A stretch of 64,000 nt of DNA, taken from NCBI GenBank assembly GCA_040954595.2, contig CM082591.2, positions 8,596,380 to 8,660,379 of the forward strand. The letters run 5' to 3'. Of the stretch, positions 21,101-60,100 are shown one piece after another. The notes below the pieces were generated by a model, which saw only the letters and a list, made by a program, of their open reading frames with translations, was not told the DNA's origin and searched no databases. The stretch comes from Balanoglossus misakiensis (lineage: Eukaryota > Animalia > Hemichordata). Every line of letters starts with the position of its first letter. Within the stretch, counting starts at the first letter, position 1. The translations under genes and the position numbers were made by a program.

Positions 21101-24100
21101 TTTATATGTTTATATTGCTATGTTAATGCAACAGCTAGTGGAAACAATGTTGTTAGTCAAGCTGTCAAAGATTGACCATTCTACTGTGTACTTCATATTA
21201 TAATGATCAGCAGCCACAATTGAGTACATCACAAATGACCTTTCATTTCTGCATATTACTACTTTCATTTGATGAATGCATACATTAGGTATTAGATGGA
21301 ACTGTTACAGCAGTGGAATGACATATCACTTTAACCACATTATTATCAGCAGCAGCAGCATCATCTAACAATTAAACCATCTTTTGGATTCCATACTTAA
21401 TAGGATGAAAACTTTCTTTCTGAATCAAGACCTCTGTACATAGCAGCTGCAAAATATGAGAGCATGGAATTTATCAATATCTTAAAAGATATGGGAGATG
21501 GCATAGATGGTACAAAAGATGACGTAAGTTTTAATTTACCAACTGCATAAGAAATATGCTGCATGTGTATTTAAGCATGTAGCTGGCAGTGTATAAATAA
21601 CAATAATATCTCACAGAAATTTACATATTCATCGGGGAAAAAAGCTGACAGATATACCCAATGTCATAAATATTTCAAATTGACAAATAGTAATTATATT
21701 AAATTTGCAGACTGGTATGACTGTACTCCATGAAGCTGCAGCCAATAATTTTCCTAACGCAGTGGAGATCCTGATAGACGCTGGGGCAGATAAAGACAAA
21801 ACAGATAAGGTATATATTTCATTGTAAATATGATGACTTTAGTATGTATCAACTATTACAAATTCTATAGCATTAGTTGATGTATGGTAATTTTCCCACA
21901 TAATCATATTTCAAGGTTGGTGACACAGCTCTGCACTATGCTGTAAAGAATAGACATCACCAGGTTGTCAAAGTGTTAATAAACAAAGATGTGGACCTGA
22001 ACTTAGACAATGAGGTAAGTGTTGATCATAATTCTTTATTGCCTCCCTATGGGTTCTTCTTTATATTCATACTGCAATTTGTAATGCATGTGTTAATGAA
22101 ATATGGTTATATGTTGAATAGAAGATAAATTTATTATATATAATAGCAATTTCATTTAAAAACTGGCGACAGGTGAAATTATAGATCAAATATTTCTTTA
22201 CTTCTAGAATGGTGAGACAGCACTCTATTGTGCTCTCAAACTTCGGGACATTGAGTCTGCCAAACATTTGCTTAATGCAAATGCCCGTCTGCACAAGGAT
22301 GCCGTAAGCTAAATTTTAATAGCAACATTTCATTCATATCATATTTATTATTATAAGAAGTGTTAGTAATTGTTGTGTTTACTAAAGCAATGCAATAAAA
22401 TCTATGTCAGTCAATAACAGACATTATTATACATCTAGTGCCGAGAACAATAGATTTTGGCGTGCAATAAAAAGCCGTACGGAACGGTACGTACGGAACG
22501 CGCGTTAAATAAGCCTTAGTTTCAAGGCGCCCTAAACTCACCGTGTACAGGTATCCGCTGTTATGCGAACGGTTTCAAGGCGCCCGCATTCCAACGCACG
22601 TGCGCACACGTAAACAAAAAAGAAAGATGGCTGCTCACTGAGTCAACTGAGCGGTTTTCGATCGATTGTATCGGCATTTTGGGCGTTTTGAAAGCCAAGT
22701 AACATGCAACACAAGAACTAACGGAGATGTAAGATGTATAATAATAAGGTTATTACGAAAATACCACAAAGTATGCACTCGGACATTAGCGCAGCGCATC
22801 GCCCTCCGCTGCACGTCGGGCGATACTTGGCGCTAATGTCCTCGTGCATACTTTGCGGTATTTTCGTAATAACCTCATATGATGCATTTTTGAAATTAAT
22901 AATTTATGGTGGAAATTATATCATGTTGTAGTGTGGAACATCAAATATTGAACAATTATTGTGCAATGAGTGATCAGAATATTTTTGTACAGATCATCTA
23001 CTAAGGCAAATGCTTGTGGGCATGAGAATGTAGTATGTTTTTTCCCCATTGTTATTAATATTGATGATATTGCAGTGCAGCAGTATTAGTGAAGTACATT
23101 CACTACAAACCTATAATAGAAATATACAGTAGAGACAAAATGTGCCACTAATGATGTTTATGTCTTATACATATGTTTCCCAGATATGAAGTAGTATTGT
23201 AATGGTATGGTTACACTGACGCAAGTATATTTTGGCTTGGCAGACACATTAATCATTCTGCTCTTTTAAATCTTATAGCGTGATTCGAATAACATATCAC
23301 AGTTGTTATGGGTTGCTGAGCATTACAAAGAAGAAATGGTTGAGGAACTTGTAAAAGCTGGTGTAAAAATAGATGAACTTCTAGAGGTAAAAATGTTTTT
23401 CATGGTTAGTTAAATAATTACCATTGTGGTTGGCAAACAATAATTATCAAATTAACACAAAACTACTCAATATCTTCTACTACACAAGACCAATACAGGA
23501 TCATTATATGTACTAACCTTTCATCAATCTTATAGCAGTAATGTAGGAAATATATTTTTAATTACAAAGATTCATTAAATCTGTGAAGCATAAAAATTAA
23601 TACAAAATATTTTCATAAGGAGTGATAATGTTGATAATGTTCAATCTTACCCTCCTCCAGGATGGACTCTCACCACTACATCACTTTTCTGAGCGTGGTG
23701 ACATGAAAGCAGTTGCAATACTCTTGCAAAAAAAAGCAAACATCAACGTTTACTCAGAGGTAAGTCTTGAAATTCATTTTTGTTGCATTTAACAGTTCAC
23801 AGTAAACCAATTCGAATATCAACCATTAACTTTGGTTAGTTATTGTTTCTTAGAACTTTGGTTAACTTTGGTTAGTTATTGTTTCTTAGACAAAGACAGT
23901 CAACCGGTATGTAGCTGTGAAGTTTACAAAATGTCAAATATCATATATTTTCATCAGGAAATGCAATGCTCAATACAACCTTGCACTCCTCCAGAATGGA
24001 CTTCCACCCCTACATCATTTTGCTAACATGTGGATAATTATGACGTGTTTGTAGTATTTATTTTCCTGTTTTTCATCATTTTGCTAAGCTTGCGAATCAT

Positions 24101-30100: not shown

Positions 30101-33100
30101 AGCTGGTTTAATGAACGTGAATCGAAATTGATCATCTTGTGTATCCTATTTTGTAAACAGAAACAACAGACCGCTTTGCATCATGCTGTCAATGGATCCA
30201 AATCTAAAGTTATCAATGCTCTGTTGAGTTGGGATAGCACTGACAAAGATGCTACAGAAAAGGTATAATAAGGCCTTTTGGTTTTGGTTTTACCATCTGT
30301 CTACTTGATATTAGTAGTTCTTAACACAACAGATGCATGTATGTATTTATGTCTGACGTATGTGAGTAGGTATTACTATTCACCTGACAAACTGAACAAT
30401 ATTTATGAGCCTGGCTTTTATAATAAAAACTATTACCGTAAATAAACATATCATATCTAAAGTATGCATAATAGCTGTAATGTGAAAATGGTTACAAGTA
30501 AAGAACCATATGTTAAAAATTATATTGTTATTCTGATTGATTTGCGTGCAGGTACCATAGATATTTTTTTCTTCTGATTTAAGTCATAAAAGATATGGCA
30601 TCAAAATTGCTTTTACCTTTCCAAATTTCGCATTTTCAAAAGTAACTAGAACTGCATGTTTTCAATATGACTTTGTAACAGCACTATACCTTTCGTCTTC
30701 TTTTTATACTGGTGGTTCAGTGTCTCTATTCAGTTTATCTGGTTGGTTTACTTCACAGAATGCCAAAACACCCTTGTATGTAGCGACAGAGAATGATGAT
30801 GTCGACTGTGTTAAGGCTCTTCTGGAGAAAGATTGCCGTATCCATGCCAATGTAACACGGACTACCTATGGAACGGTAAGCAGATCAAACACTTATCATA
30901 TTATAAGAAATATTGCTGTTATTTATCAAACACAAAAGCAGAAGTCCAACCTAGCCAAATGAATTTGTAGTGTGAACCATTTTCAAAATAGACTAGCTCA
31001 TTTTACCAACTAAACAAATAGGTCCAGATTAAATTGACCAATGGATACAAAAATGGTCGGGCAAATTTATTGAACTTAATCTTGATTTACACTTTCTGAG
31101 TAGAGAACCATAAATTTATGTTACTATGTAAAATTACAGGATGCAAATTGCATACCATATTGCTCTAACCTCAGCATGAGATTTTCTGACAGGTGGACCG
31201 TCATTTATAAAAAATAAATTATATAGCTAGTCCATCCAAACACCAGGAATAATCTTTAATGGCATTAATTACACATAATTAATTGTGTAAAATAAAGCAG
31301 ATATCTGTGTGAAATTGATTAAACAAATTTTAGGTTAGTTTCCATCTTATGATGTGCCTCAGCTGCCTTTGTTGAATATTAATTTCAGTTTTCTTGAGGA
31401 TATGATGGGACGGTGTTGGAGATTCAAAATCCAAAACGACCAATACTGATACAAGTGTTTTGTTGAATATTAATTTCAGTTTTCTTGAGGATATGATGGG
31501 ACGGTGTTGGAGATTCAAAATCCAAAACGACCAATACTGATACAAGTGTTTTGTTGAATATTAATTTCAGTTTTCTTGAGGATATGATGGGACGGTGTTG
31601 GAGATTCAAAATCCAAAACGACCAATACTGATACAAGTGTTTTGTTTAAGCAATAAAACACCCCCAGCCATGGTATATCACGAGATTTTGACCAGTTCAC
31701 GACATATACGCACGAGCGATAGCGAGTGCGTATATGGAGTTGAACTGGTCAAAATCGAGTGGTATACCATGGCTGGGGGTGTTTTATTGCTATTATATTA
31801 TGCCAGTATATTGAAACTTTGCATAAAACATTTTAAAAAGGCATTTTCTTTAACTATGATATATGACTGTGGTATATGGCTAATATATCACGGTCACGTG
31901 TCGTGTCTCGACCAATCAAATAGTGTGATTTACACCATCAATATACTGGTATAATATAATGAATATTAATTTCAGTTTTCTTGAGGATATGATGGGACGG
32001 TGTTGGAGATTCAAAATCCAAAACGACCAATACTGATACAAGTGTTTCGTTGAATATTAATTTCAGTTTTCTTGAGGATATGATGGGACGGTGTTGGAGA
32101 TTCAAAATCCAAAACGACCAATACTGATACAAGTGTTTTGTTGAATATTAATTTCAGTTTTCTTGAGGATATGATGGGACGGTGTTGGAGATTCAAAATC
32201 CAAAACGACCAATACTGATACAAGTATTTTAAGTACTAAATGTAGCTTCCTTCTTTATTTTATTTTTATGTATTATTTAAATCAGGATTTATAAAGTAGT
32301 CATCCCATAGAACAGCTAAAAAAATGTAAACAGGAATACGGCAAGACAAACAGACACAAATAACAATTATAATAAAAACAAAATAAAAGAGCAAAGATAA
32401 AAAGTCAGTCAAAAAGCAGTAAAACAGACAATCCGCTGTACTTGCACCAAAAAGCATTATAATATATACATCGACTTTCTGTAGAGCTGTTGAAATTTTG
32501 ACAGGACAAAGACATCAGAGTTCACTAATTTGTTCAAAATGCTATTGCCACTGTTAATTCTGACATAGAATTTGTAAAGTAATTTATGCCTCAAAGAGTC
32601 AAAGGAAGGGACATTGTTAGATACACACATCTCACTAGCACTGCAATCTCATGGCAGGCACAATAGAATACGAAATGCATTGTTGTAAGCCACTCTGAGA
32701 CTGTTCATGTTTTTCGTGCTGTACTGCCACCATAAATGTGAACAGGACATATTAGTACAATAGGTGCAAAATCAACTGACCTTCACAGGATTATTACCAT
32801 TTGCAAATTTTCGAGTCAATATATTTGCCTGTGCATAGGATTTACACATCCGTCTCTTAATGTCAGCATCACCTGTCATTGTTTCTGTAAAAACATAGCC
32901 AAGATATTTATGATGTGATACAACATTCAACATTTTACCGCCCAAGAACACTGGTGGTATCTTATCTATAGTCAGATTCGATTTGCCTGGTATGAAATAC
33001 ATGCATTCTGATTTCTTGGGGTGAAATACAATATCATGTTCAAGACCATACTTTTCACATATTGAAACTAGTTTACGCAAGGCACTGATGGGCGGAGCCA

Positions 33101-36100
33101 TCAAAGCAATATCATCTGCATACATCAAATGCTTAATAATAGATCCACTGATGGTACAACCCTTTCCACATTAATTTAAACGTACACTCAAATTATCCAT
33201 ATAAACATTAAATAAGTACGGAGATAAAATGCCAGCCAGTCGGACACCATTTTTGACTGAAAATAATGATAAAAAGCATTCTCCCCACTTAATACAAAAA
33301 AGTTGTGTCCAGTACCAAACCATTATAATCCGAATTACATACCAGGGCACAGATCTATCAATAAGCTTCTTAAATAAAACCCACTGGTTTACCCGATCAA
33401 ACGCTTTGGTAGCATCCAAAAAACATGCAAAAACTGGACTGTTAAAATGACTGTAGTACGAGATTATTCCTTTCATTGCATAGATACAAAAGTCAGTTGA
33501 ATGACCACGTTTGAATCCGAACTGCATGTCTGATGTATACAGGAAATCTTTGCAACGCTCTAGAATGATCAACTCTAACATCTTTGATGTAACCGTAGCA
33601 ATAGCAATAGGCCTGTAGTTATCTTTACTAGAGACATCCCTGGTTTTGGAGTGTTGACTCTCAGTTAGAGTAATTGCATCTTTCATGTTCAGCACCTCAT
33701 GTCGAAGGGAACGCATTTCCTTCAGCATCGATGATACATCAATGTGAGAGATGTCAATCGGTGGTAACTCATTCAGGTCTTTTGCAACAAAGCATGGCAT
33801 ATTATCAGGATCTGTTTGGTGTACCAAGGCCAGGATGTCATGAATATTATTCAGCTTCTTATGTTGACCTTTTCGTTGTATGTACCGTCCATTCGCATCT
33901 GTGCATACCATATCAAATATTGTACGCTTGGCCTTTTCAATACCTTGATCATCGGAGTGTTCAGCACAAAGTTTAGCAATGACCTCGCCGGGTACGTAGC
34001 ACATCGACTTTGTTTGTAATGAAGCAGAGAATCTCGTTGATAATTACACCAGCCGATGATAACTTGTTTTCCGGGCAGTCAGCGACGTCAGGCTTACGCA
34101 AGGTAGAAGCAGGATTGGAGCCACGTTCAAATTGTTGTCTTTTACAGGGTGAGCATAGATCTAGATCACCCTGCCATAACTTTACCGCGTTAGAAGTTTG
34201 TTTACAGTCGTTGCAATTTAGCGTAATGAACAGCTATGCGTATATTACGCAGTTCTGGTACACACCTGGAGTCTGCAAATGTGACAGCGTGTTGACCTCA
34301 CCAGTCAACTTCCAGAGCGTATTTTTGTAGATTTTCCGTCTAAATATGACTTCCCCTCTCTACAAAACACCAAATACGTGTCGCCCAGGGCTTCATGCAG
34401 CGTCCACAATGACAACCACTCTTCTGGGAGAAGAATTCCAGGAAAAAATTTAGTCGATGTCGCGGACCCGTCAACACGTGCATGCGGTTTCTGAAGATGT
34501 CTCGTATTTAAATGAAAGATATGGGAAATTAAATACATTGGAGCCTCCCTATAACGAACATTATATGTAGATGTACATATCCCAATTTTAAAACCTGAAA
34601 TCAGAAAATGTATTTACCACCAAAACAATACTAAAATGCTGTTTGGCATCAGTTTAGATGTGGCAATATTGATCAAAACCGTGATTCTTTCTTCAATTGT
34701 GTAATTATCCATTTTTTCCCAACGACAATGAAATAATATGTAATGTTTCCTTTTATAAATATTAATGGTATACAGTCACCTCCAATTTACATACGCCCAT
34801 ATATGGCTGAAATGGCATATTTGAGCATTCTAAAGAACACATGGTGGCGCTCTTTTTTTGCGTGGCTAGATCTCAACTTGCCATGGTAACTACAGCTAAT
34901 GTTCCATAGTTGACCATATACTATTAAGGCATCTGTCCTTCCAGAACAATTGATTTTTACCATTAATCATATTTCTGTTTGATTAATACTATAAGGCGTA
35001 CACCAGTAATTTGACCCAGCTGAAGTGGGTTGTTGAAAATGAGAAAGACTCAATGGTGCGAACATTGCAAAGAGCTGGAGTAAACATAGATTCATATGAT
35101 GAAGTAAGTTAATCTTTATATTTACTGCTAGTACCGGTATACAGAAATTACACTGCATAGCTACTTTCAAATTAAAAAGTCTTTCAACGATTTCAAGTAT
35201 ATAATATAAGTTGAATCAATATATACTGTAAAACACTTTATTTTTGCGAGTTGAAATTTTTTGCAATATCCAGAGAGGCCACTGTTTCGTGAGTATTAAT
35301 TTTCGTGTTCTCTTATTTCATTCACTGCATCGTTATCTTCAAAAAATATTTACGCAACTTTTTATTTTCATGAAAATTTATTGCTCGTGAAAATAAAGTA
35401 TTTTACAGTAGATGTTATTTTAAGTATTTTGAATACTAATTAAAATGAGTATAAAAATATATCTTTTGTTATTCTATATCATTTAATGATTACTGGTTTA
35501 CATGGCCTATTCTGCTCATGTAAATTGCCATCCTCTTTTCTAACTTTAACATTATGAAGATAGATCTATTCCTACTGTGTTTTTGACATTAGAATTTACT
35601 TTATATTTTTAAACTTGGATTTTTGTTCGTGACATGTCAAGTATGATCACTAATGGGACATAAGAATTTCCACGTTTATGTAAGTTGATAAACAGCAATT
35701 CACATATCCATAAATAATTTATCTTCAAGGACCATTTCACACTTCTACATCACTTTGCAAGAAATGGAAATGTAGCTTGTGTAAAGATCCTGCTTGAGAA
35801 TGGTGCCACAATCGATACATATTGTAAGGTGGGCATTTTGTTTGTTTGTCTATATTTATATATAAAATATATATAAATTTATATGAAAGCTACCATCACA
35901 GTAGTGTATGGGTTTTATAAAGTACAGTGTGCATTTTGTGTGCATTTTGTGTATGTTTTTCCATGCATAAAGTGCTCAACATTATTGTTTTGCAGGATAA
36001 GTACACTCCTGTCTTTTATGCTGCCCAAAATGAACACGTTGATGTCACCAGCCTTCTGATTACATCTGGTGCAAGATATCTACATTCTGACAACAAGGTA

Positions 36101-39100
36101 CTTTACCATTTTCATTGAACATGTGAATACCATGCAAGTTGTATCAATTTGGCCTGTTATTTAATTCCTGTAAAATGATTCACACAAATTGCCAAACTTT
36201 TCTTTCTTCATTGTATCCATTTATAATGGTAGTGCGAGATGTTTATGTTCATTATGCATGCAACAAATATGATATCATTGTATATCTTACCAAAATATAG
36301 AAATTGCCCTTCACACTTCATTGAGAATTAAATTATATGACAAGCTTATAAGATTCATTTATCAACTGTACCATGTTTATCATGGTTTATTTTTTTAAAC
36401 AGACAACAGCTCTTCATTGGGCAGTATCCAAAACCATGAAAACTGTGACGAAGACTTTGCTAAGAGTTGATGGAATTGGCATAAATGATGAAGTCACTGG
36501 CTTAGCAAAGGTAAGCATGTAACTACACACACCACTCCCAGTACTAGATATGGTAACTTGTTTTTACAGTTCAAACTTTTATGCTGACAATTTTCACAAT
36601 TAAGAAAATACAATTGAAAGAATTCAAAAATATGATAAAATTTCAGTCATATTGACTGTATTGCTCATTTTACATTTAGCTGATGCTCACCTGAAGGTGA
36701 GATTAGTGTGAGTTATTCTTCCAGATGTGTCTCACACTAAAACAGTAAAAGCCATAACATTGTATAACATACACCACCCTGAATGATACAGATATATAGT
36801 TAACAAAAAAACTTACAATGGTTTTAATTTTGTGTTTAAATTCCCAGGAATATCCTAAAAAAACGACAGTACTCCATCTTGTTGCAAGAGAAAACAATAT
36901 TGTTGCTGTTAATCTGTGTCTACAGATGAATGCTGATTGCCACATGCTTGATGCAGTAAGTGACTTTATCATATGCCTATATTCACGTGCCCATGTAAAG
37001 TCTATGGGGAAAAGCGCCCTCACATCCATGCAGTTTTTTTGCTTATCACGCCCCGGCCCGGTGACCATATTTGGAAGACGCGTTCAATATCCGGATCTAG
37101 TTTTGTGTTTATTGCGCGAGATTCGAAAGTTGCCGTTGCTATGTTCTGAATTAATTTTTTCTGGTGCGGTGTCAGTGACTAGTGCACTTGCAGTGTGTGT
37201 ATGTCCTATGCCGCTACCGAATCCCATCATCTCCCGTAATCGCTGCATGTTGTAGAGCTTTATTTGGAAATATGAATAGTAAAATTGATGATTTGATCTG
37301 ATTAATGTGTGACTGTCGGCGTCGATCGTCGCGAAGAAAAACTAATGTTTTGCTCGCGCTCGGCTCTGTGAGTTCGAGCGCGTCTGTATCTCACGTGCAA
37401 TAGAATGTAAACAAATGACATCGTGCATATCAATCCGCAAGAACTGGAGGAATGCGCCTCTATGCTACGGGATAGATCATTTCAAAACGATAGATAAACA
37501 CGTAATATTTACATTCCAAAATATTACAGAATGTGTATTTTATTAGTTTCTTGTAGATTATCGTTCAATAAGGCATATGATAAAACCTTTACGGCCCTGA
37601 TACGGGTTTTGCGGCCATCGGTCGTACGACGATTCCCGCCCTCCCTGCGGTCGGGCGCTTCCGCCGTACGACCTCGGGCCGCAAAACCCGTATCAGGGCC
37701 GTAAAGATTATCGAATAGATTAGTACGAGGACTGATTTGGGGATTGCTGGCGCAATAGGGAGGAGGGTCACAACTTTCATCAAAACAATTATATTAAGAG
37801 ATCTTTCTTCTGTTAAACAAAATAGTACTGATATTATTAATAATTTTTGCCAGCATTTTTGCCTTGTGATAACATCTGGTATTGTCTTTGCATATTATGG
37901 CCTTTGACCCATATTCTTACACTGGTATGCAAGCATATGTTACAGTACATGCTTGTCATTTGTAAATTCTTCAGGACCCCTGGTGACATGAGCAGCTCAG
38001 CATTGACCGATGTGCGAGGTCAAAGGCGTGTGTGATATGCAAATTACTTCAGGGCGTTGTCTGAAAGTTGTTTAGCGGCTAATTTATCCTCTATTGTTCA
38101 ATAAGAATGTCCAGAAAAGGTGTATAATAATAAGTTTTTACACAAAATACCAGGATTTATTTATTGTATGTTGTGAATAACCTTATGATATTTACAATGG
38201 CAATATGAAACCAAAAATGTAGCTTACATTAGTCGAGTCTTGCCCAATTTGCTTAAATATGCATTGGTGAAAAATATAGCGCTTCTGTTGTCTCATTTAT
38301 AGAAAACACTTCTAAGAAGAAAAGATAATTGTGTGAAAAACATTTTCTTCCCATTTTGAAGCTTATGTACAGGTGTAACATTTAAATAAACTTTGTAAAA
38401 ATGATCCCTTGGTGAGTTTGTTGACTTGAACCTTGAAGGTTGTGTTTTAAGGATGTACATGTGAACTGTACGTGCAAATGTGTATGCATTTGTGTCTTAA
38501 TTCCATAGGACTATATTGAGATTAGCTGGAAAATTCACTTCTACTATTGATTTTCATGAAATTTTAAAAATTGTTTAGTCAAATAAATATAAATTAGTCA
38601 GTAGAATAAAAATGTTTTATCCAATAAACAAGCCCTTTGAGTGTTTGATGAATATATTTCCTGCTTTTTCAAACTAAGGACGGAAAGAGTGCATTCTACT
38701 ATGCTGTCCATCACGAACAAACGGAAAATGTGAAGAGACTTAAGAAGGCTGGTGCTGGTTTTGAAAGTTCACTGCAGGTGTGTACAGAGGAACACTGGTC
38801 TGCTCTTTGGGCATTTATTTTGCATGTCATGTTAGCAGTTTAAGCTATTTTCATCGACAAGTAATTTTTTTAAGCCTTGTGAATTGAAGAGGATATACCC
38901 TAACATTTCAATGTGGGCACTTTCACATGTCACTATTCAACCGTGCTTACCTCTTTGCTTTGCAATTTTTTCTTTGAATTAGCCTGAGATATTGGAAGAG
39001 ATGACAGTCTACTGTGCTGCAGCAATGTATACAAAAACGCAATATCTGAAAGTGCTATGCGATGCTGGTTATAGTGTGGATGCCACAAACACTGTAAGTT

Positions 39101-42100
39101 GCATTGGTATATAATACATAATGTCAAATAATTTAGTGACATTGTAAAAAAAATAGCAGAAACGTAGAATTGCCTTCTGCTTGTAGAAGGATGTGAAATT
39201 TGATTGCAATAAAAGGAAAAGGACTTTAAAAGTACAAATTATGATATAGCTTTTTTATTTCCACATTTTCTTTAAGGATGGAGAAACTGCCCTACATTTA
39301 GCATCAAAAGAAAATGAGAATGAAGCAATATCTCTTCTTCTTGATCATGGAGCATTTATTAACACTAAAGACCAAGTAAGTGGAAAATGTATTATAGTGC
39401 AAATAATAGCTCGACACTTCAGTCTGATCGCAGCCAGCCTAATTAAGCCGGAGAGATCAAAGAGATATATTTGAATGTGAACGTCACTGAGTGGCAGTTA
39501 CGGCCGGTTCGAAAAATTTTCAAACGGAGATTTTCGGTACTACAAGTGATCGTAGTGCATCCATTTTTCTAAGACGTGTATGAAACACCACAGTCAATGA
39601 TAGGATGATTTTTCGTGAAGTTTTAACGACGCGTTCCCGAGAAAGACAGTTTTGGTATGTTGGTTGAAATTGTGGTCCCTGACTCACGGAAAAGATTTCT
39701 TGTCTTGAAAAAAATGGGTAGGTTAGGAAGATATTGAACTAAGTTACCGTGAAATTATAATGTTGTGAACCGCTCCGTTGTGGAGTAATGACGGTGTAAA
39801 AATTGCCTTCGCCTTTGACGAGTACAGCCGTGTATACCATATGTATTAACACTGAACTCGGTCAAGGCATGTTGACCTATGACGTAATGGCTTCCTTTTC
39901 AATGCGAAGTTAACTCTCATTAGCATATTACATACGGAGTCAATTCACTATCCCCACGCTGACTGACTACTACATTGTACTATGGCACCGTAAATTGTGG
40001 TCCTTGACCCATGGCATGGATATATTAATGTCAAAATTATGAATAGAGGAGTTTAATAATGTTTCTAAAACCTGAGGGGGTTAATTTTTGTGTGGGTATG
40101 GCAGATATTTTTTTTTTGATTTGTTAACTTCACGGTCACTTTGAATTTCGTGATCACAATTTTGTCAGTGGAATTAAAGAAATTCTTCTTGATAAAACTT
40201 CATGAAAAATCACATGTAGTACACTCATAGTAATGTGCCTGGGGTGAAATAATTGTCAGAAATGGGTTGCAAGTTGCTAAACTTTCGTTCTGAAAAAAGT
40301 TGAAAAACTGTATGCAAATGAGGAATTCAAACGTTACTGGCCAGTTCAAGTGTTTGCATTGCATAATCCCCTGCTGTGTAATTACCCCAGTTGCGACCTG
40401 CCTGACTTGTCATGTCTATAAATCATGCATATTTGGTTTGCTAAATAAATGCAGTAGCATCATCATTACTGATATGTACTTATTGTCCTGAATATTTTGC
40501 CATACATATACACATTGCATGATTGTAAAATTTTGGTTTTAAATCAAGCTCATTGTAGAAAATTTTAAACTTCCTGTTGCTTAACTGCAAAACTGTTAAA
40601 CACATTATGCTTTGTATTTACAAAGTACCAAGGGCAACTGTAATTATGAAATTTGAGGTGTAGGATATAATTTGCATAGTGGTGCTCAGCAGGGCTAGAT
40701 GTGCATGATGTGCACTCTCACCAGTTAAATACATGTAAATGCAAGTAGAGATTAATTGCGCAGGTGTTCTGTTTACGCATTTGCTAAATAATTAGGGATG
40801 TAGGCGCAGAACATAAACCGGAAAACTGTGCGCCCTCGTCTTTTTCCCATAGGATTACATTGTTAATTGCTAGAAAATAAACTTCTACTTTTGTCATTTT
40901 TACGAAATTTTACACTGCCACCTGTAGGTTATCAATTCTAGCTCAAACATTAAATTATTCACAGGATGGACGAACAGCAGTGCACCATGCTGTACTTTGG
41001 GCTAACTTTGAAGCCACCGAAACTCTAATGAAAAGAGGGGCGAGATCAGATATACACGATGTGGTATGTATCACCAATAATTTTACAGTTGTTGATGTCA
41101 CTCTGCATGCTCAGAATGCCACATGTCATTTACTATAGATAGCGACTGTACATAAATACTTTTCGGTAACATCATTGAATCGTTGCCAGTGACATTTTGG
41201 GATGTTTTACTAAAATAAGTATTCTCATTAGCATAAAGATGATACAATATACACTGTCAACTTGAAAACTACTGAACCAAATGTCATTCCAAATTGGCAA
41301 TTATCACATCTCAATAGATCTGGTAAGATTTACCATGCAAAAGGCATTCATAATTTGTCTGAAAAGTTGTGAAATTGACCTACATTTTCATATACCAGTA
41401 AGGTATGGGGTACATATCTTAGCTACTGAAATAAACCCCTAGAATATTCCATACAACCTGGGCCTGGCTGCTTTACTCTATAATGTGTATTGAATGTGTC
41501 TGCATTCAGAAAATTAAACTTACAGGATAGATACAGTCTACATATTCCAGATGAATTATGAAGTAGGCTGGTTAATCAAACGACAGCTTCTGTGTCAGTT
41601 ACACGTCTTATTACAGAAATATGTCAATATTTATTGCAGGAAATCCAAACTCCACTATACATGGCATTGAATAGATACCAAGAGAAAGGACAAAAAGAAA
41701 TCGTCAAGATTCTTTTAGAAGCCGAAAGTCCTATTCATCCAGACACAGTAAGTATTAAGATAAATACATTTACATGTTATCACATAGTTTGAGATACGTC
41801 CTGAATATGGAAGAAGTAATATTGAACACCTATTGCCTGGCCATGAGGGCCATAGCGGCCGTTTATTGCACCCGAGGCGCTGTGAGTTACCATAATCATA
41901 TGCTATTTCCCGAGGCCGCAGGCCGAGGGAAATAGCATATGATTATGGTAACTCACAGTCACGAGGGGGTAAAAGCGGCTGCTATGGCCCGAATATAGGC
42001 CAGGCTATAGGTGTTTTATAATAAACCTCATGCTAACAGCTGGGAAAATCTTGCAATTTTCTCTTGAGGTTGGCAGACGACACCTTCCGCGGTGGCCATT

Positions 42101-45100
42101 GTGTCAGACGACACAACGCTGATTGACGTGACCGAGTCTGCGCACTCACGCTGGTCACGTGACCGGTTTATATTTTTTCTGCTATTGCCCTAGCGGTTCA
42201 TAGTCAATTCTATTTTCCTATCACGTGACGGATTCTGGCGAATCACGGCACAGTATTAGCATGAGGTATATTATAATAAAAGATATGAATGTCTTGATTT
42301 TGATAATCTTCTCGGTAATGAGTTCAGCTTTAATAAGCCATTGTCCCTGTATCAAGAAAATGACTTGGGTAAAAAATATTCATAAATATGAATGATCATT
42401 TTGCATGTTATTATATATAATCCCATGATATTTTTCTTTGTTTGACGTCATCGTATACGAGTGGTTTTCGCGGAGCTGTGCAACTTCGAGCCGTAGGCGA
42501 GAAGTTGTACGACTCTGCGAAAACCACGAGAAACAAAGAAAATTATCATGGGATTATATATTTATCACATGAACAGTCTTCTTATTTTCGTTAGAAGAGG
42601 TAGGATAAAAATATTCCAATATCTTGCTAAAATATTCGAGCGGCCTTGCAGTTTATTTAGCGGGATTACGTTCTTTCCCCTGCGCAATGATCTGTGGCCC
42701 CCAGGAGATATGCTAATTATGGAATCACTTTCATTCATAAAGTGCAATTGACTTTCAAGTTCATACACTTTTGCGTCTTGTCTACCAATCAGATTCGCGG
42801 AGTCAGTCACATGGGCCAGAATTTTGATACATTCTGCCTGTCAATCATCGTCTCGCGCTGTGTACATGTCAACACAACGTCGTAGCAAGTCATCGCGTCG
42901 AGTTATGCTGCAAGTCGCAGTTTGACAGAAAAAATGACGTGCTTCAAGTAAAACTTTATGAAAAAATAACACAGTTCAATTGCCATATATCCTAAAATCG
43001 TTATTGTGACAGGATATTATTAGTCCAGGAACGATGTTCAAGGTTGCGTTTGCGTCGGCCTGGCTAGTCAGCGCCGGTGTGTTTCCGCAGAAACTGCAAC
43101 CCTCTTACAGAATCTCATCCTCGAACCCCAGACAAATGTTTTCAATTCTCAAACAAATGAACTGCAACGTTTTTCCACGTCTTATACATTTCGTTGACCG
43201 GTGGACAGAATACAGAGTGTTAGTCGTCCCGCTCAGGTGGCTCGAAATCATTCTCGTAACTTCCGTAAGCCTAAAATCAAGTGTGCTGGCTCGCTCGGGA
43301 CCAGACTTGCTAGCTACAAGCACACATTCACGATCATAGCGTCGACATTTTTACCTTTCTCGTATTGCTTTTACCAAGCGATATTCTTTCGCAACCGTCA
43401 TGGAACCGTCATTTTTATTTCAATCGTGTACAACTACGGGTTTATGCACTTGTTATTCCGTTTTACAAGGAAGTTATAGCGACGGGTGAATCAGCGAAAA
43501 TAGTTCCGGTTGATGAAGTAGAACAGGGGAAAATTCGAATTTTTTGTTCGACCTGTTCTACGTCACACTGGTGACTATACGGGCCAGTTCATGTGATAAA
43601 CAACTATATGAGATGTTTAAGCTCTAAATTTTCTGTTCATAATATTGTGGAACAATGAACTGTAATGTGTTAGTTTTTCTTTACAGAAAAATGCATCAAA
43701 TGTGTCACAAGCATACTGGGCAGCTAGAAATGATAAAGCGACTATGGTGAAAGCCCTTTCAGACTCTGGAGTTGACATGAATAAACAAGTACAGGTTGGT
43801 TTAGAAGTTTGGTCATAACGATGCATAAAGTACATTCTCAAATTAGAGAACAAATTCTAAGTACAATTGACATTTGTTATATACTTTTGTTACTTGAAGG
43901 ATGGAAAAACTCCTCTACATCTAGCTTGTGAGGTGGGTGATGAAAGTGCAGTCGAAATCCTGCTAAGCTATGGTGCTAGTGAAAATGTGTATTGTAAGGT
44001 ATGTTACTCTAATCCCACTTAAGTAATGAAATACATAGTGGCTTTATCTTTAGTAGAATGGAAGCCAAGCTATGTTTGTTATTTACTTACATTTAACTTA
44101 AATTAAAATTTGCAACTTAAACTTTTGATATCACAATGATATCGCAATCATATTCACTCTCATAATTATGTTAATGTGCTCTCTTCAACCTTAGCTTAAT
44201 ATTATTGATCAGTTGTCTTAATGTATTTTAGTACATTTGTTTATTTTGATTTTTCCCGTAGAATGGACATTCTCCTTTGTTTTATGCAGCAAGGAATAAA
44301 TATGTCACCATTGCTCGGCGCTTATTGGGCAATACAGATAGGTTACACAAAGATAGCATGGTATGTATGATAAACTCTTCAGTATACTTATCTTATATGT
44401 GACTGTTGAACCAATTCTAAACTTACTGTAAATAATACCCATCCCTATTTGAAAAAAAATTATATTAGTGAAGGAATAATAATTAAAGGTCTACAAATGT
44501 GACATCAGTTGTATAGTTGTAACCCTATAATTTGCCACCAACCTTTTCAAATGTATTGGATATTAGTTGTTACAGATCTGAGAGTAGAATGTTACTATTG
44601 ACAAAACCTGGTAATTTTAATATTGGACATTTGAGTATATTTTACCAACCTATTGTTATAAGGACACCACACAAACTATAGAAATATTTGAGAACCTTCA
44701 AATCTACAAGCTGATTACTTTCATTAATCCCCAAACACTTACACAAACTTCTTATTTAGGTGATAGTTGTAGAAAAATATTAAAGGTACATGAGCTGCAA
44801 CTGGATAAAAAAATGCTGTTTTGAATAATCTTATATATGCTTTTAATTGTCTATTAAATGATATTTCATGATAATATATCAAGCTCAACACTTATATATG
44901 ACAAAATGGCCAAAAATTAGAGAATTACAAAATCCTGCAATTTTTAAAAAGTGCAATGAGAAAATATAATGATATAATGTCTCAGCGGTGTACATTTACT
45001 TCCATGAGCTCAAGTGGATGAGATCATGTTTTGTTTATGAAGTTTCATAACCGGAAACATTGTTTCTTGCATTTTCCCACGGTGGCGGCCATATTCGCCA

Positions 45101-51100: not shown

Positions 51101-54100
51101 CAAATAGGTCCAGATTAAATTGACCAATGGATACAAAAATGGTCGGGCAAATTTATTGAACTTAATCTTGATTTACACTTTCTGAGTAGAGAACCATAAA
51201 TTTATGTTACTATGTAAAATTACAGGATGCAAATTGCATACCATATTGCTCTAACCTCAGCATGAGATTTTCTGACAGGTGGACCGTCATTTATAAAAAA
51301 TAAATTATATAGCTCGTCAATCCAAACACCAGGAATAATCTTTAATGGCATTAATTACACGTAATTAATTGTGTAAAATAAAGCAGATATCTGTGTGAAA
51401 TTGATTAAACAAATTTTAGGTTAGTTTCCATCTTATGATGTGCCTCAGCTGCCTTTGTTGAATATTAATTTCAGTTTTCTTGAGGATATGATGGGGCGGT
51501 GTTGGAGATTCAAAATCCAAAACGACCAATACTGATACAAGTGTTTTGTTGAATATTAATTTCAGTTTTCTTTGGATATGATGGGATGGTGTTGGAGATT
51601 CAAAATCCAAAACGACCAATACTGATACAAGTGTTTTGTTGAATATTAATTTCAGTTTTCTTGAGGATATGATGGGGCGGTGTTGGAGATTCAAAATCCA
51701 AAACGACCAATACTGATACAAGTGTTTTGTTGAATATTAATTTCAGTTTTCTTGAGGATATGATGGGATGGTGTTGGAGATTCAAAATCCAAAACGACCA
51801 ATACTGATACAAGTGTTTTGTTGAATATTAATTTCAGTTTTCTTGAGGATATGATGGGACGGTGTTGGAGATTCAAAATCCAAAACGACCAATACTGATA
51901 CAAGTGTTTTGTTGAATATTAATTTCAGTTTTCTTTGGATATGATGGGATGGTGTTGGAGATTCAAAATCCAAAACGACCAATACTGATACAAGTGTTTT
52001 GTTGAATATTAATTTCAGTTTTCTTGAGGATATGATGGGATGGTGTTGGAGATTCAAAATCCAAAACGACCAATACTGATACAAGTGTTTTGTTGAATAT
52101 TAATTTCAGTTTTCTTGAGGATATGATGGGACGGTGTTGGAGATTCAAAATCCAAAACGACCAATACTGATACAAGTGTTTTGTTGAATATTAATTTCAG
52201 TTTTCTTTGGATATGATGGGATGGTGTTGGAGATTCAAAATCCAAAACGACCAATACTGATACAAGTGTTTTGTTGAATATTAATTTCAGTTTTCTTGAG
52301 GATATGATGGGATGGTGTTGGAGATTCAAAATCCAAAACGACCAATACTGATACAAGTATTTTAAGTACTAAATGTAGCTTCCTTCTTTATTTTATTTTT
52401 ATGTATTATTTAAATCAGGATTTATAAAGTAGTCATCCCATAGAACAGCTAAAAAAATGTATACAGGAATACGGCAAGACAAACAGACACAAATAACAAT
52501 TATAATAAAAACAAAATAAAAGAGCAAAGATAAAAAGTCAGTCAAAAAGCAGTAAAACAGACAATCCGCTCTACTTGCACCAAAAAGCATTATAATATAT
52601 ACATCGACTTTCTGTAGAGCTGTTGAAATTTTGACTGGACAAAGACATCAGAGTTCACTAATTTGTTCAAAATGCTATTGCCACTGTTAATTCTGACATA
52701 GAATTTGTAAAGTAATTTATGCCTCAAAGAGTCAAAGGAAGGGACATTGTTAGATACACACATCTCACTAGCACTGCAATCTCATGGCAGGCACAATAGA
52801 ATACGAAATGCATTGTTGTAAGCCACTCTGAGACTGTTCATGTTTTTCGTGCTGTACTGCCACCATAAATGTGAACAGGACATATTAGTACAACAGGTGT
52901 GAAATCAACTGACCTTCACATGATTATTACCATTTGCAAATTGTCGAGTCAATATATTTGCCTGTGCATAGGATTTACACATCCGTCTCTTAATGTCAGC
53001 ATCACCTGTCATTGTTTCTGTAAAAACATAGCCAAGATATTTATGATGTGATACAACATTCAACATTTTACCGCCCAAGAACACTGGTGGTATCTTATCT
53101 ATAGTCAGATTCGATTTGCCTGGTATGAAATACATGCATTCTGATTTCTTGGGGTGAAATACAATATCATGTTCAAGACCATACTTTTCACATATTGAAA
53201 CTAGTTTACGCAAGGCACTGATGGGCGGAGCCATCAAAGCAATATCATCTGCATACATCAAATGCTTAATAATAGATCCACTGATGGTACAACCCTTTCC
53301 ACATTAATTTAAACGTACACTCAAATTATCCATATAAACATTAAATAAGTACGGAGATAAAATGCCACCCAGTCAGACACCATTTTTGACTGAAAATAAT
53401 GATAAAAAGCATTCTCCCCACTTAATACAAAAAAGTTGTGTCCAGTACCAAACCATTATAATCCTTATCACATACATAGCTTCGCATATACCATAGTATG
53501 ACGTCAGACGTAGGTAAATTTGCACCAAGCGTTATTGTAATACCCATCCGTCTGACGTCACCAAACGGAACTATTTTAAACTTGTAAACAAAGTCCTCTT
53601 AGGGCGACAAAATTCAGTGCAATTGTTGGTTTTATTTCGATATTAAAAAATAAGCAAAGATAAATAAAATGTTTCGTATGTGTAAATATGGACGATCGAC
53701 GATTAGTTTTACCTGTGTACATTTTTATCGCACCAACCGGCACCAAAACTGTCGCGAGGTCGTCAGTGCTGAGCCAAAGTCGTCGCGTTGTCGAACGAGC
53801 GACAGGTACAAAACTGAGTATTCGCAAAAATTTTGATGCGACGATTAGAGCAAAACGGTCTAGTCATAAAGCAAGAAAGGTTTCCTGCTCCAGTGAAACC
53901 TTGACGGACGATGAAATCCAGCTGACGCACGACAGACGGGTCCTCGCCAAAACCAGAATCGTCCAGGTCGTGACCTCAGTCACCAGACAGATAGACCGCA
54001 TAACAATTTTGCACAAAATAGTTCCAAATTTTATCGCAACCACAAAGAGATTTATTTGAAAATCAAAATTAGCGGATCTATGTATGTGATAAACATATAA

Positions 54101-57100
54101 TTCCCCCGTATTCCTCACTCGTGTACCTGCGTCGCGAACTCGTGATTCCCCGTATAGCTGTATCCCTCCTCGCCTGCGGCTCGGAGGGATACGGCCGCTA
54201 TACGGGGAATCACTCGTCCGCGACGCAGGCACACTCGTTCGAAATACGGGGGAATTATATATAAGAATTACATACCAGGGCACAGATCTATCAATAAGCT
54301 TCTTAAATAAAACCCACTGGTTTACCCGATCAAACGCTTTGGTAGCATCCAAAAAACATGCAAAAACTGGACTGTTAAAATGACTGTAGTACGAGATTAT
54401 TTCTTTCATTGCATAGATACAAAAGTCAGTTGAATGACCACGTTTGAATCCGAACTGCATGTCTGTTGTATACAGGAAATCTTTGCAACGCTCTAGAATG
54501 ATCAACTCTAACATCTTTGATGTAACCGTAGCAATAGCAATAGGCCTGTAGTTATCTTTACTAGAGACATCCCTGGTTTTGAATTTGGAGTGTTGACTCT
54601 CAGTTAGAGTAATTGCATCTTTCATGTTCAGCACCTCATGTCGAAGGGAACGCATTTCCTTAAGCATCGATGATATATCAATGTGAGACATGTCAATCGG
54701 TGGTAACTTATTCAGGTCTTTTGCAACAAAGCATGGTATATTATCAGGATCTGTTTGGTGTACCAAGGCCAGGATGTCATGAATATTATTCAGCATCTTA
54801 TGTTGACCTTTTCGTTGTATGTACCGTCCATTCTCATCTGTGCATACCATATCAAATATTGTACGCTTGGCCTTTTCAATACCTTGATCATCGGAGTGTT
54901 CAGCACAAAGTTTAGCAATGACCTTGCCGGGTAGCACATCGACTTTGTTTGTAATGAAGCAAAGAATCTCATTGATAATTACACCAGTCGATGATAACTT
55001 GTTTTCCGGGCAGTCAGCGACGTCAGGTTTACGCAAGGTAGAAGCAGGATTGGAGCCACGTTCAAATTGTTGTCTTTTACAGGGTGAGCATAGATCTAGA
55101 TCACCCTGCCATAACTTTACCGCGTTAGAAGTTTGTTTACAGTCGTTGCAATTTAGCATAATGAACAGCTATGCGTAAATTACGCAGTTCTGATACACAC
55201 CTGGAGTCTGCAAATGCGACAGCGTGTTGACCTCACCAGTCAACTTCCAGAGCGTATTTTTGTAGATTTTCCGTGTAAATATGACTTCCCGTCTCTAAAA
55301 AACACCAAATACGTGTCGCCCAGGGCTTCATGCAGCGTCCACAATGACAACCACTCTTCTGGGAGAAGAATTCCAGGAAAAAATTTAGTCGATGTCGCGG
55401 ACCCGTCAACACGTGCATGCGGTTTCTGAAGATGTCTCGTATTTAAATGAAAGATATGGGAAATTAAATACATTGGAGCCTCCCTATAACGAACATTATA
55501 TGTAGATGTACATATCCCAATTTTAAAACCTGAAATCAGAAAATGTATTTACCACCAAAACAATACTAAAATGCTGTTTGGCATCAGTTTAGATGTGGCA
55601 ATATTGATCAAAACCGTCAATTGTGTAATTATCAATTTTTTCCCAACGACAATGAAATAATATGTAATGTTTCCTTTTATAAATTTTAATGGTATACAGT
55701 CACCTCCAATTTACATACGCCCATATATGGCTGAAATGGCATATTTGAGCATTCTAAAGAACACATGGTGGCGCTCTTTTTTTGCGTGGCTAGATCTCAA
55801 CTTGCCATGGTAACTACAGCTAATGTTCCATAGTTGACCATATACTATTAAGGCATCTGTCCTGCCAGAACAATTGATTTTTACCATTAATCATATTTCT
55901 GTTTGATTAATACTATAAGGCGTACACCAGTAATTTGACCCAGCTGAAGTGGGTTGTTGAAAATGAGAAAGACTCAATGGTGCGAACATTGCAAAGAGCT
56001 GGAGTAAACATAGATTCATATGATGAAGTAAGTTAATCTTTATATTTACTGCTAGTACCGGTATACAGAAATTACACTGCATAGCTACTTTCAAATTAAA
56101 AAGTCTTTCAACGATTTCAAGTATATAATATAAGTTGAATCAATATATACTGTAAAACACTTTATTTTTGCGAGTTGAAATTTTTTGCAATATCCAGAGA
56201 GGCCACTGTTTCGTGAGTATTAATTTTCGTGTTCTCTTATTTCATTCACTGCATCGTTATCTTCAAAAAATATTTACGCAACTTTTTATTTTCATGAAAA
56301 TTTATTGCTCGTGAAAATAAAGTATTTTACAGTAGATGTTATTTTAAGTATTTTGAATACTAATTAAAATGAGTATAAAAATATATCTTTTGTTATTCTA
56401 TATCATTTAATGATTACTGGTTTACATGGCCTATTCTGCTCATGTAAATTGCCATCCTCTTTTCTAACTTTAACATTATGAAGATAGATCTATTCCTACT
56501 GTGTTTTTGACATTAGAATTTACTTTATATTTTTAAACTTGGATTTTTGTTCGTGACATGTCAAGTATGATCACTAATGGGACATAAGAATTTCCACGTT
56601 TATGTAAGTTGATAAACAGCAATTCACATATCCATAAATAATTTATCTTCAAGGACCATTTCACACTTCTACATCACTTTGCAAGAAATGGAAATGTAGC
56701 TTGTGTAAAGATCCTGCTTGAGAATGGTGCCACAATCGATACATATTGTAAGGTGGGCATTTTGTTTGTTTGTCTATATTTATATATAAAATATATATAA
56801 ATTTATATGAAAGCTACCATCACAGTAGTGTATGGGTTTTATAAAGTACAGTGTGCATTTTGTGTGCATTTTGTGTATGTTTTTCCATGCATAAAGTGCT
56901 CAACATTATTGTTTTGCAGGATAAGTACACTCCTGTCTTTTATGCTGCCCAAAATGAACACGTTGATGTCACCAGCCTTCTGATTACATCTGGTGCAAGA
57001 TATCTACATTCTGACAACAAGGTACTTTACCATTTTCATTGAACATGTGAATACCATGCAAGTTGTATCAATTTGGCCTGTTATTTAATTCCTGTAAAAT

Positions 57101-60100
57101 GATTCACACAAATTGCCAAACTTTTCTTTCTTCATTGTATCCATTTATAATGGTAGTGCGAGATGTTTATGTTCATTATGCATGCAACAAATATGATATC
57201 ATTGTATATCTTACCAAAATATAGAAATTGCCCTTCACACTTCATTGAGAATTAAATTATATGACAAGCTTATAAGATTCATTTATCAACTGTACCATGT
57301 TTATCATGGTTTATTTTTTTAAACAGACAACAGCTCTTCATTGGGCAGTATCCAAAACCATGAAAACTGTGACGAAGACTTTGCTAAGAGTTGATGGAAT
57401 TGGCATAAATGATGAAGTCACTGGCTTAGCAAAGGTAAGCATGTAACTACACACACCACTCCCAGTACTAGATATGGTAACTTGTTTTTACAGTTCAAAC
57501 TTTTATGCTGACAATTTTCACAATTAAGAAAATACAATTGAAAGAATTCAAAAATATGATAAAATTTCAGTCATATTGACTGTATTGCTCATTTTACATT
57601 TAGCTGATGCTCACCTGAAGGTGAGATTAGTGTGAGTTATTCTTCCAGATGTGTCTCACACTAAAACAGTAAAAGCCATAACATTGTATAATATACACCA
57701 CCCTGAATGATACAGATATATAGTTAACAAAAAAACTTACAATGGTTTTAATTTCGTGTTTAAATTCCCAGGAATATCCTAAAAAAACGACAGTACTCCA
57801 TCTTGTTGCAAGAGAAAACAATATTGTTGCTGTTAATCTGTGTCTACAGATGAATGCTGATTGCCACATGCTTGATGCAGTAAGTGACTTTGAATAGATT
57901 AGTACGAGGACTGATTTGGGGATGGCTGGCGCAATAGGGAGGAGGGTCACAACTTTCATCAAAACAATGATATTAAGAGATCTTTCTTCTGTTAAACAAA
58001 ATAGTACTGATATTATTAATAATTTTTGCCAGCATTTTTGCCTTGTGATAACATCTGGTATTGTCTTTGCATATTATGGCCTTTGACCCATATTCTTACA
58101 CTGGTATGCAAGCATATGTTACAGTACATGCTTGTCATTTGTAAATTCTTCAGGACCCTTGGTGAGTCACGAAAGGCCTTCACAAACTGTTAAAACTGCA
58201 ACACCTTACATTGGTTATTAAAAAAATAATTAATTAATATTCGGTATCAGAATACAATAATGGATTGAGGATGCAGAGTTCCATAACTTCAGGGTTATTG
58301 TACTCCAGTATCCATAGTTTTGACCTTACAGTTATTGGATGTAAATAATAGCGATATCATAAATAAATCTGTCAAAATTGATATAAAAATTATACAGTTG
58401 TGAAGAACTTAATTATTGGTAACAAAAAGTGCGAAATAAGTCAAAATCCTCAGTGGAATTTCAGCCGAAGGAATCTTTGAATGAGCAAGTGTGTTCATTT
58501 CAGACATTCCAGAACAAGCTAAGCAGCGTAGAACATCACATGCGTGACATGAGCAGCTCAGCATTGACCGATGTGCGAGGTCAAAGGCGTGTGTGATATG
58601 CAAATTACTTCAGGGCGTTGTCTGAAAGTTGTTTAGCGGCTAATTTATCCTCTATGGTTCAATAAGAATGTCCAGAAAAGGTGTATAATAATAAGTTTTT
58701 ACACAAAATACCAGGATTTATTTATTGTATGTTGTGAATAACCTTATGATATTTACAATGGCAATATGAAACCAAAAATGTAGCTTACATTAGTCGAGTC
58801 TTGCCCAATTTGCTTAAATATTCATTGCATTGGTGAAAAATATAGCGCTTCTGTTGTCTCATTTATAGAAAACACTTCTAAGAAGAAAGGATAATTGTGT
58901 GAAAAACATTTTCTTCCCATTTTGAAGCTTATGTACAGGTGTAACATTTAAATAAACTTTGTAAAGATGATCCCTGGGTGAGTTTGTTGACTTGAACCTG
59001 GAAGGTTGTGTTTTAAGGATGTACATGTGAACTGTACGTGCAAATGTGTATGCATTTGTGTCTTAATTCCATAGGACTATATTGAGATTAGCTAGAAAAT
59101 TCACTTCTACTATTGATTTTCATGAAATTTTAAAAATTGTCTAGTCAAATAAATATAAATTAGTCAGTAGAATAAAAATGTTTTATCCAATAAACAAGCC
59201 CTTTGAGTGTTTGATGAATATATTTCCTGCTTTTTCAAACTAAGGACGGAAAGAGTGCATTCTACTATGCTGTCCATCACGAACAAACGGAAAATGTGAA
59301 GAGACTTAAGAAGGCCGGTGCTGGTTTTGAAAGTTCACTGCAGGTGTGTACAGAGGAACACTGGTCTGCTCTTCGGGCATTTATTTTGCATGTCATGTTA
59401 GCAGTTTAAGCTACTTTCATCGACAAGTAATTTTTTTAAGCCTTGTGAATTGAAGAGGATATACCCTAACATTTCAATGTGGGCACTTTCACATGTCACT
59501 ATTCAACCGTGCTAACCTCTTTGGTTTGCAATTTTTTCTTTGAATTAGCCTGAGAAATTGGAAGAGATGACAGTCTACTGTGCTGCAGCAATGTATACAA
59601 AAACGCAATATCTGAAAGTGCTATGCGATGCTGGTTATAGTGTGGATGCCACAAACACTGTAAGTTGCATTGGTATATAGTACATAATGTCAAATAATTT
59701 AGTGACATTGTAAAAAAATAGCAGAAACGTAGAATTGCCTTTTGCTTGTTAACTTTTAGAAGGATGTGAAATTTGATTGCAATAAAAGGAAAAGGACTTT
59801 AAAAGTACAAATTATGATATAGCTTTTTTATTTCCACATTGTCTGTAAGGATGGAGAAACTGCCCTACATTTAGCATCAAAAGAAAATGAGAACGAAGCA
59901 ATATCTCTTCTTCTTGATCATGGGGCATTTATTAACACTAAAGACCAAGTAAGTGGATAATGTATTACAGTGCAAATAATAGCACGACACTTGTCATGTC
60001 TATAAATCATGCATCTTTGGTTTGCTAAATAAATGTAGTAGCATCGTCATTACTGATATGTACTTATTGTCCTGAATATTTTGCCATACATATACACATT

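Follow-up and report, generated by a model that had tools for sequence, protein, structure and literature searches.

The window analysed here is a 64,000-nt stretch of Balanoglossus misakiensis contig CM082591.2 (GCA_040954595.2, positions 8,596,380 to 8,660,379), and all coordinates below count from its first base. It is AT-rich DNA with ankyrin-repeat exons and relics of long interspersed nuclear elements (LINEs). A segmental duplication of ~18-20 kb inside the window supplies paralogous empty sites for its insertions. The hairpin at 54095-54261, which an earlier note on this DNA had read as a sign of folded single-stranded DNA (ssDNA), is the 3' end of a multi-copy, non-coding element of 800 bp at 53465-54264 (family F). 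Six families of such elements (A to F) are represented in the window, and they share a common build consisting of a TTAT start, a body, an inner inverted copy of the start and a terminal hairpin of 125-190 nt. The layout can be written as a - body - a' - h - loop - h' - 2 nt, where a is the 5' repeat, a' its inner inverted copy, and h and h' the two hairpin arms. The parts of element F and the other copies are as follows.

53465-54264, plus strand: family F element, 800 bp, TTAT start, inserted in a LINE relic without target duplication; gap of 800 bp relative to the empty paralogous site near 33321
53465-53481, plus strand: 5' terminal repeat (a) of F
54076-54092, minus strand: inner inverted copy of the 5' repeat (a') of F, immediately before the hairpin
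54093-54262, minus strand: terminal hairpin of F, 170 nt, apex at 54170-54182 (minus); its minus strand has a c-GCA-g triloop and four tandem GA/GA loops
54263-54264, plus strand: two terminal bases of F, unpaired when both ends pair with a' and the hairpin arm
4380-4693, minus strand: family A, copy 1, 314 bp; hairpin 4382-4526 with a GATA loop, apex 4448-4459 (plus)
31646-31959, minus strand: family A, copy 2, inside a unit of a 91-bp satellite, recognised as a filled unit against uninterrupted units; hairpin 31648-31792, apex 31714-31725 (plus)
19887-21085, plus strand: family B, copy 1, 1199 bp; hairpin 20935-21083 with a GTA loop, apex 20996-21008 (minus)
42411-43599, minus strand: family B, copy 2, 1189 bp; hairpin 42413-42561, apex 42488-42500 (plus); empty site near 61537
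22424-22879, plus strand: family C element, 456 bp; hairpin 22745-22877, apex 22805-22817 (minus); loose ends at 22423 and 22879/22880
36966-37710, plus strand: family D element, 745 bp, 3' end uncertain by one base; hairpin 37584-37709, apex 37642-37652 (minus); empty site near 57891 with one substitution
41823-42276, minus strand: family E element, 454 bp; hairpin 41825-42015 with a GCA loop, apex 41912-41926 (plus); empty site near 61396

The ends of the elements were defined by five empty sites (F, the second copies of A and B, D and E), which revealed precise ends and no target-site duplication. In contigs from three runs of one sample, a sharp depth step with loose ends was found at 53465 and 54264, which identifies F as a multi-copy element with fixed ends (a further run, X4, covers F only partly). 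All eight copies in the window start with TTAT and finish in a varied sequence ending in A. The inner inverted copy of the start is 13-22 nt long and lies 127-193 bp from the 3' end in 8/8 copies. No repeat is common to both termini, the inverted copy of the start being found inside only.

Some observations on copies outside the assembly concern families F and C. Two contigs of run X1 (records 4 and 8, over 54004-54269) carried the F hairpin end followed by 0.8-1.2 kb unlike the F interior, and these are sister subfamilies that may be longer or autonomous. At the 3' end of C (22880), a low-agreement consensus (0.46) behind the loose ends resembled an element start, which hints weakly at head-to-tail stacking. 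In run X3, 16 of the 38 changes listed over 22370-22930 were A>G, many of them in the C hairpin arms, compared with 3/16 in X1 and 4/22 in X2 from the same sample. Should X3 be an RNA run, the excess would be consistent with A-to-I editing of a transcript from the top strand.

The layout has a property that concerns both ends at once. When a' and the first hairpin arm are read through, they are the complement of the 3' end of the element joined to its 5' start. Two extra terminal bases were left at this junction in five families (A, B, C, E and F); in D, with its end known only to within one base, there was one. The 2-nt rule predicted that C ends at 22879, and loose ends were then seen at 22879/22880. 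The whole F element can be folded into this splinted form on either strand, with energies of -165.2 kcal/mol for the strand rich in G·A mismatches (hereafter the G·A strand) and -159.7 kcal/mol for the other. On the G·A strand the hairpin is at the 5' end and the ATAA end is 3', so that the two meet as at a nick. The hairpins are predicted by folding to hold the two ends of an element together as one junction. A comparable arrangement has been described for DIRS-1, whose internal complementary region (ICR; 33 + 55 nt) is complementary to the two ends and needed for movement, and whose complementary DNA (cDNA) is single-stranded and antisense (PMC7192593).

The six apices read as the earlier note had written them, and all lie on the strand opposite the TTAT start. 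Mismatches were counted in arm-to-arm alignments of one copy per family, the second copies of A and B being omitted as near-duplicates. On the strand opposite the TTAT start, the 61 mismatched pairs comprised 35 A·G, 2 C·T, 14 G·T, 2 A·C and 8 others. The excess of A·G over C·T (35 vs 2) had a binomial p of 1e-8. Tandem GA/GA mismatches outnumbered TC/TC by 15 to 0, and by 9 to 0 (p 0.004) after the apical ones were removed, whereas the chance of GA/GA in a random adjacent mismatch doublet is 0.007. The mismatches are biased to the same strand in 6/6 families, as had been claimed, and the Py-GA-Pu context was borne out for 11 of the 15 GA/GA tandems when both strands were considered. Further GA/GA loops did recur down the stems; the count given for F needs correction, since three further loops are present there instead of two. 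The further loop of B lies beside a side hairpin and was left out of the count, and that of D is part of a 3x3 loop. In most copies of C from other runs the apex reads c-GA-CGC-GTA-GCG-GA-g (22811 G>A, 22813 A>G), and the odd apex of the window copy is accordingly a private mutation. At least two of the G·T pairs in the window are likewise private changes, as judged from the C copies in other runs. With C taken from the majority copies, the apical loops are C(GNA)G in five families and C(GATA)G in one, and none of the six apices (0/6) has a GNRA or UUCG loop. The stability of C(GNA)G loops is specific to DNA. The C(GNA)G and C(GNNA)G loops, together with the lack of GNRA and UUCG, point to a DNA fold.

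To see how far the design extends beyond the window, the apex pattern was scanned over part of a metagenome collection. This yielded 114 loci, 12 of which lay in AT-rich contigs with long hairpins and fell into six families unrelated to those of the window. With one locus counted per family and the selecting apex excluded, A·G exceeded C·T by 18 to 5 (p 0.011), a weaker bias than in the window, and tandem GA/GA exceeded TC/TC by 4 to 0. Metagenome contig L073 also contained a complete element (645-1040) that had not been picked by the pattern. It has the same layout and carries its GA/GA loops on the same strand; its apex is branched, with two c-GTA-g caps. A neighbouring element in L073, which had been selected by the pattern, has 94-bp tandem repeats before its hairpin. 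Conservation of the fold without conservation of the stem sequence, as claimed, held up across all 12 families. Of the 84 positions compared below the apex, 74 paired when each arm was matched with the other arm of its own family; arms exchanged between families paired at 1.9 of 7 on average. The stems of the 12 families are probably not homologous base by base, so the pairing demonstrates a shared design and not column-wise covariation.

The apex motif was also found in phage and bacterial DNA. Partial scans of viral DNA put the number of stretches with the B/F apex, any of three GNA loops being allowed, at an estimated 710 or so, compared with about 330 for a control with the loop on the opposite strand. 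Among the stretches that were read, AT-rich flanks surrounded 30/121 of those with this apex and 3/120 of the controls, and no open frame crossed the apex in 68/121 and 12/120, respectively. Multi-copy palindromes of bacteria (L482-L601) carry the family E apex with a GAA, GCA or GTA loop, paired with a second hairpin of the GCGAAGC type on the other strand. Among 101 open reading frames (ORFs) beside bacterial-looking apex copies there were 3 of GIY-YIG type, 3 of phage-integrase type and several DDE transposases. Since it recurs in phage and bacterial non-coding repeats, the apex motif is a general fold motif that names neither an enzyme nor a mechanism. That one strand bears both G·A tandems and GNA caps in mobile DNA of very different kinds supports a fold under selection; taken with the fact that C(GNA)G loops are specifically stable in DNA, it also favours DNA as the material of the fold. 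The scans of viral DNA with the apex patterns returned no long hairpin of the animal type, and the B/F junction pattern had no match in the viral or metagenome contigs scanned. Two groups of contigs were also observed: a bacterial-looking hairpin family with the B apex (L049, L075, L077, L091, L114 and L116), which adjoins DUF6431 genes in L049 and L077, and many related phage contigs (L166, L172, L176, L190 and relatives) in which the apex occurs in its GAA form, within AT-rich DNA just upstream of an apparent start codon.

These features lead us to lean towards the view that the six families are gene-less, multi-copy transposons that move as folded ssDNA in an integron-like manner, using a tyrosine recombinase of CryptonA type that another locus of the genome would provide. 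What we infer here is that the fold forms in the cell, which enzyme acts on it and by what chemistry. We are fairly confident of a working single-strand fold. The single-strand interpretation of the earlier note is supported with regard to the conserved fold, the one-strand bias and the DNA-type loops; self-priming, which it also suggested, and literal attC membership are not supported. CryptonA elements are listed in Repbase with TTA termini, a 3' terminus that is not conserved and no target duplication. A TTA 5' terminus was found in 8/8 copies and no target-site duplication at the five empty sites. On this terminus and the absent duplication, membership of the elements in CryptonA is probable. 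Animal Cryptons have abundant non-autonomous derivatives (Kojima and Jurka 2011, PMC3212892).

Movement could be pictured as follows. The strand opposite the TTAT start would be exposed, for instance at a replication fork, and fold, with its sheared G·A tandems and GNA cap giving it the advantage over its complement in both speed and stability of folding. The a'h segment would splint the 3' end of the element (ATAA) next to its 5' end across the 2-nt offset. A CryptonA-type recombinase might then cut the G·A strand at both ends and join them into a single-stranded circle. The folded junction of this circle would recombine into an AT-rich target through a single strand transfer, with replication completing the insertion, as in attC x attI. 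More tentatively, and with less confidence than in the fold or the family assignment, we suggest that an animal CryptonA moves as one folded DNA strand whose splint aligns the ends with a 2-nt offset, and that a tyrosine recombinase pastes it into targets without a sequence match.

Several findings weigh against this reading. No micro-homology between junction and targets and no common target motif was seen at the eight sites, which is unusual for tyrosine recombinases. When G·T pairs are disallowed, ViennaRNA energies with DNA parameters differ little between the strands (-2.0 to +0.6 kcal/mol for bottom minus top), and RNA parameters favour the G·A strand by 7-22 kcal/mol. Outside the window, two of the six families lack a further GA/GA tandem, and the G·T bias was not replicated (G·T vs A·C, 9 vs 8). 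The apex motif also turns up frequently in repeats of phages and bacteria, next to enzymes of several types. Kojima and Jurka found no terminal repeats in animal Cryptons (PMC3212892), and the strings 'hairpin' and 'palindrom' are absent from the main text of their paper; the present elements have an asymmetric inverted repeat. Furthermore, neither an autonomous element nor a DUF3504 sequence was found in the searches that follow. DUF3504 was absent by Pfam from 76 ORFs of the window and from 36 element frames (76 of the 105 window ORFs of >=75 aa were scanned, the rest being duplicates or overlapping the LINE ORF). It was also absent from 408 prokaryote and virus records (3 virus records, 4 genomes and 401 genomes), in which the control was silent as well. 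Six-frame Pfam scans of the interiors of both B copies, C, D, E and F (A was not scanned) gave no match and no Rep-helicase relic. A 130-aa frame of B had no relative among longer proteins, and a 131-aa frame of F had none among 1.84 billion representatives, the best Atlas value being 0.79. A recombinase motif was looked for in the window and in 11 loci, and was absent from all of them.

Two further coding features of the window are the following.

2120-4080, minus strand: relic of a deleted retroelement, presumably DIRS/Ngaro-like as judged from a motif and the gene order, with gag-like frames and the C-terminal part of a tyrosine recombinase, without reverse transcriptase
13742-15745, plus strand: open frame of 667 aa with a reverse transcriptase domain (LINE), E 2.6e-28

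The sole recombinase trace in the window (2127-2450, Pfam E 0.023) lies in the former relic, outside the hairpin elements. It follows a gag-like frame without a TTAT repeat or hairpin, and was rejected as the partner.

The chief competing explanation is that the elements are non-autonomous relatives of Helitron2 or Helentron moved by an HUH Rep-helicase, with the ssDNA fold as a start or stop signal for rolling-circle copying. It shares the absence of target duplication and, as a further point against a Crypton origin, the order of parts, with a 5' repeat at the end, an inner inverted copy directly before the 3' hairpin and a 5' T (PMC3627910). We nevertheless regard it as unlikely. In published elements the inner repeat is 20-30 bp away from the 3' end for Helitron2 and 38-60 bp for HINE, beside palindromes of 5-10 bp (PMC3627910, PMC4067079), compared with 127-193 bp here; a TT target with T-run flanks would be expected, whereas T|T was found at only 2/8 sites; and the element frames scanned with Pfam contained no Rep-helicase relic. 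Somewhat less likely still are Crypton-type elements that recombine as ordinary double-stranded circles, the G·A and GNA features being tolerated palindrome mismatches (through less cruciform damage or escape from repair) in a fold that the enzyme does not read. This would agree with the standing model of a double-stranded Crypton circle (PMC13565253), with the removal of long perfect palindromes by host enzymes (PMC3733652) and with the recurrence of the motif in unrelated phage and bacterial palindromes. However, tolerance in double-stranded DNA would explain neither why the biased strand is always the same with respect to the TTAT start (6/6 families and the L073 element) nor why the 2-nt offset of the junction is kept.

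The remaining alternatives involve RNA or another mode of replication. The elements could be non-autonomous DIRS-like retroelements, in which a'h serves as an ICR: the top strand would be transcribed, and the single-stranded cDNA, equivalent to the G·A strand, would rebuild and join its ends with the help of this region. The ICR geometry and single-stranded antisense cDNA of DIRS-1 (PMC7192593), the internal region complementary to the joined ends in the present elements and the DIRS/Ngaro-like relic in the window would all suit this scheme, which we consider improbable: there are no long inverted terminal repeats, no trinucleotide is common to both flanks, and, as a weak point, the genomic copies of C show no A>G excess (3/16 and 4/22 listed changes) of the kind that a long-hairpin RNA stage might leave. 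A hairpin that acts as RNA transcribed from the G·A strand is very improbable. The preference of RNA parameters for that strand would accord with it, as would the fact that tandem G·A pairs form in RNA too, but GNRA and UUCG loops are missing from the apices, no Rfam 15 match at the gathering score was obtained in the 64-kb window, and the hairpin is fixed to the last bases of the element in register with its first bases. The least credible is parvovirus-type self-priming (rolling-hairpin replication), which the earlier note had raised and for which a long imperfect terminal hairpin at one end would be suitable. The G·A strand carries its hairpin at the 5' end, where it cannot prime, and a 3' hairpin is found on the opposite, TC/TC strand, which ends in two unpaired bases; an inverted (flop) hairpin occurs in none of the eight copies of the window.

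Other repeats of the window were recorded as well. Two further insertions (39416-40404 and 58162-58543) have apparent target duplications of 4 bp and 3 bp. An element with 142-nt terminal inverted repeats beginning with TTAA is located at 6246-7048, inverted 60-bp units form an array at 9809-10249, and a small inverted-repeat element is present at 35211-35423 and 56135-56347. The 91-bp satellite extends over 31368-32375 and 51454-52508.

The elements probably belong to a kind that has already been catalogued, with an end design that is undescribed and a mechanism that can be tested. In the open-access literature, exclusive of Repbase reports, figures and subscription papers, we found no description of these ends and no single-strand model of Crypton movement. 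According to a 2026 review, the Crypton mechanism has not been experimentally demonstrated (PMC13565253), and the present ends offer a concrete substrate for asking which strand, which bond and which unpaired bases are used. If the proposal is true, animals have a recombinase that integrates folded ssDNA without a fixed target, an ability so far known from bacterial integrons, and integron-like single-strand recombination would be native to animal genomes. The DIRS ICR and the Crypton ends would then be tied to one ancestral design of end joining, many unassigned hairpin-ended repeats could be classified by structure, and a possible starting point for single-strand integration tools would be at hand.

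Compared with known systems, the elements resemble the non-autonomous CryptonA elements (PMC3212892; Eulor5/6, PMC5753468) in being short, abundant derivatives of animal DNA transposons, and differ in their terminal repeats and hairpins, which are unreported in the parts of those sources drawn on here, and in that no recombinase gene is linked to the present families. With Helitron2, Helentron, HINE and DINE-1 (PMC3627910, PMC4067079) they have in common the 5' repeat, the inner inverted copy before the 3' hairpin, the absence of duplication and, as proposed here, a single-strand mechanism; unlike in that group, the hairpin arms of about 60-95 bp reach the last bases, the inner repeat is far from the end and no TT rule applies. 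The CGTC-tagged REP-like repeats of bacteria (PMC3733652), matched by resemblance, share an E-type apex in multi-copy palindromes, but are short, with no long stem, no split inverted repeat and no known dedicated transposase. DIRS-1 (PMC7192593) likewise has an internal stretch complementary to its joined 5' and 3' ends that can splint ssDNA; the present elements lack its long inverted terminal repeats and reverse transcriptase, and their 3' end folds back over a loop of 3-4 nt. A further parallel is the integron attC site (PMC5027507, PMC3458562), in which one strand folds better, the unpaired parts are purine-rich, the tip is of GNA type and structure prevails over sequence. The bottom strands of attC are enriched in purines and G·T and have a GAA tip (PMC5027507), and its insertion into attI takes one strand exchange followed by replication (PMC3458562). 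The present elements show the same enrichment of purine mismatches on one strand with a GNA-type tip. The R'/R'' core is missing, no RYYYAAC/GTTRRRY being found at the ends of any of the eight copies, and whereas each attC folds alone, here both ends of the element fold onto each other.

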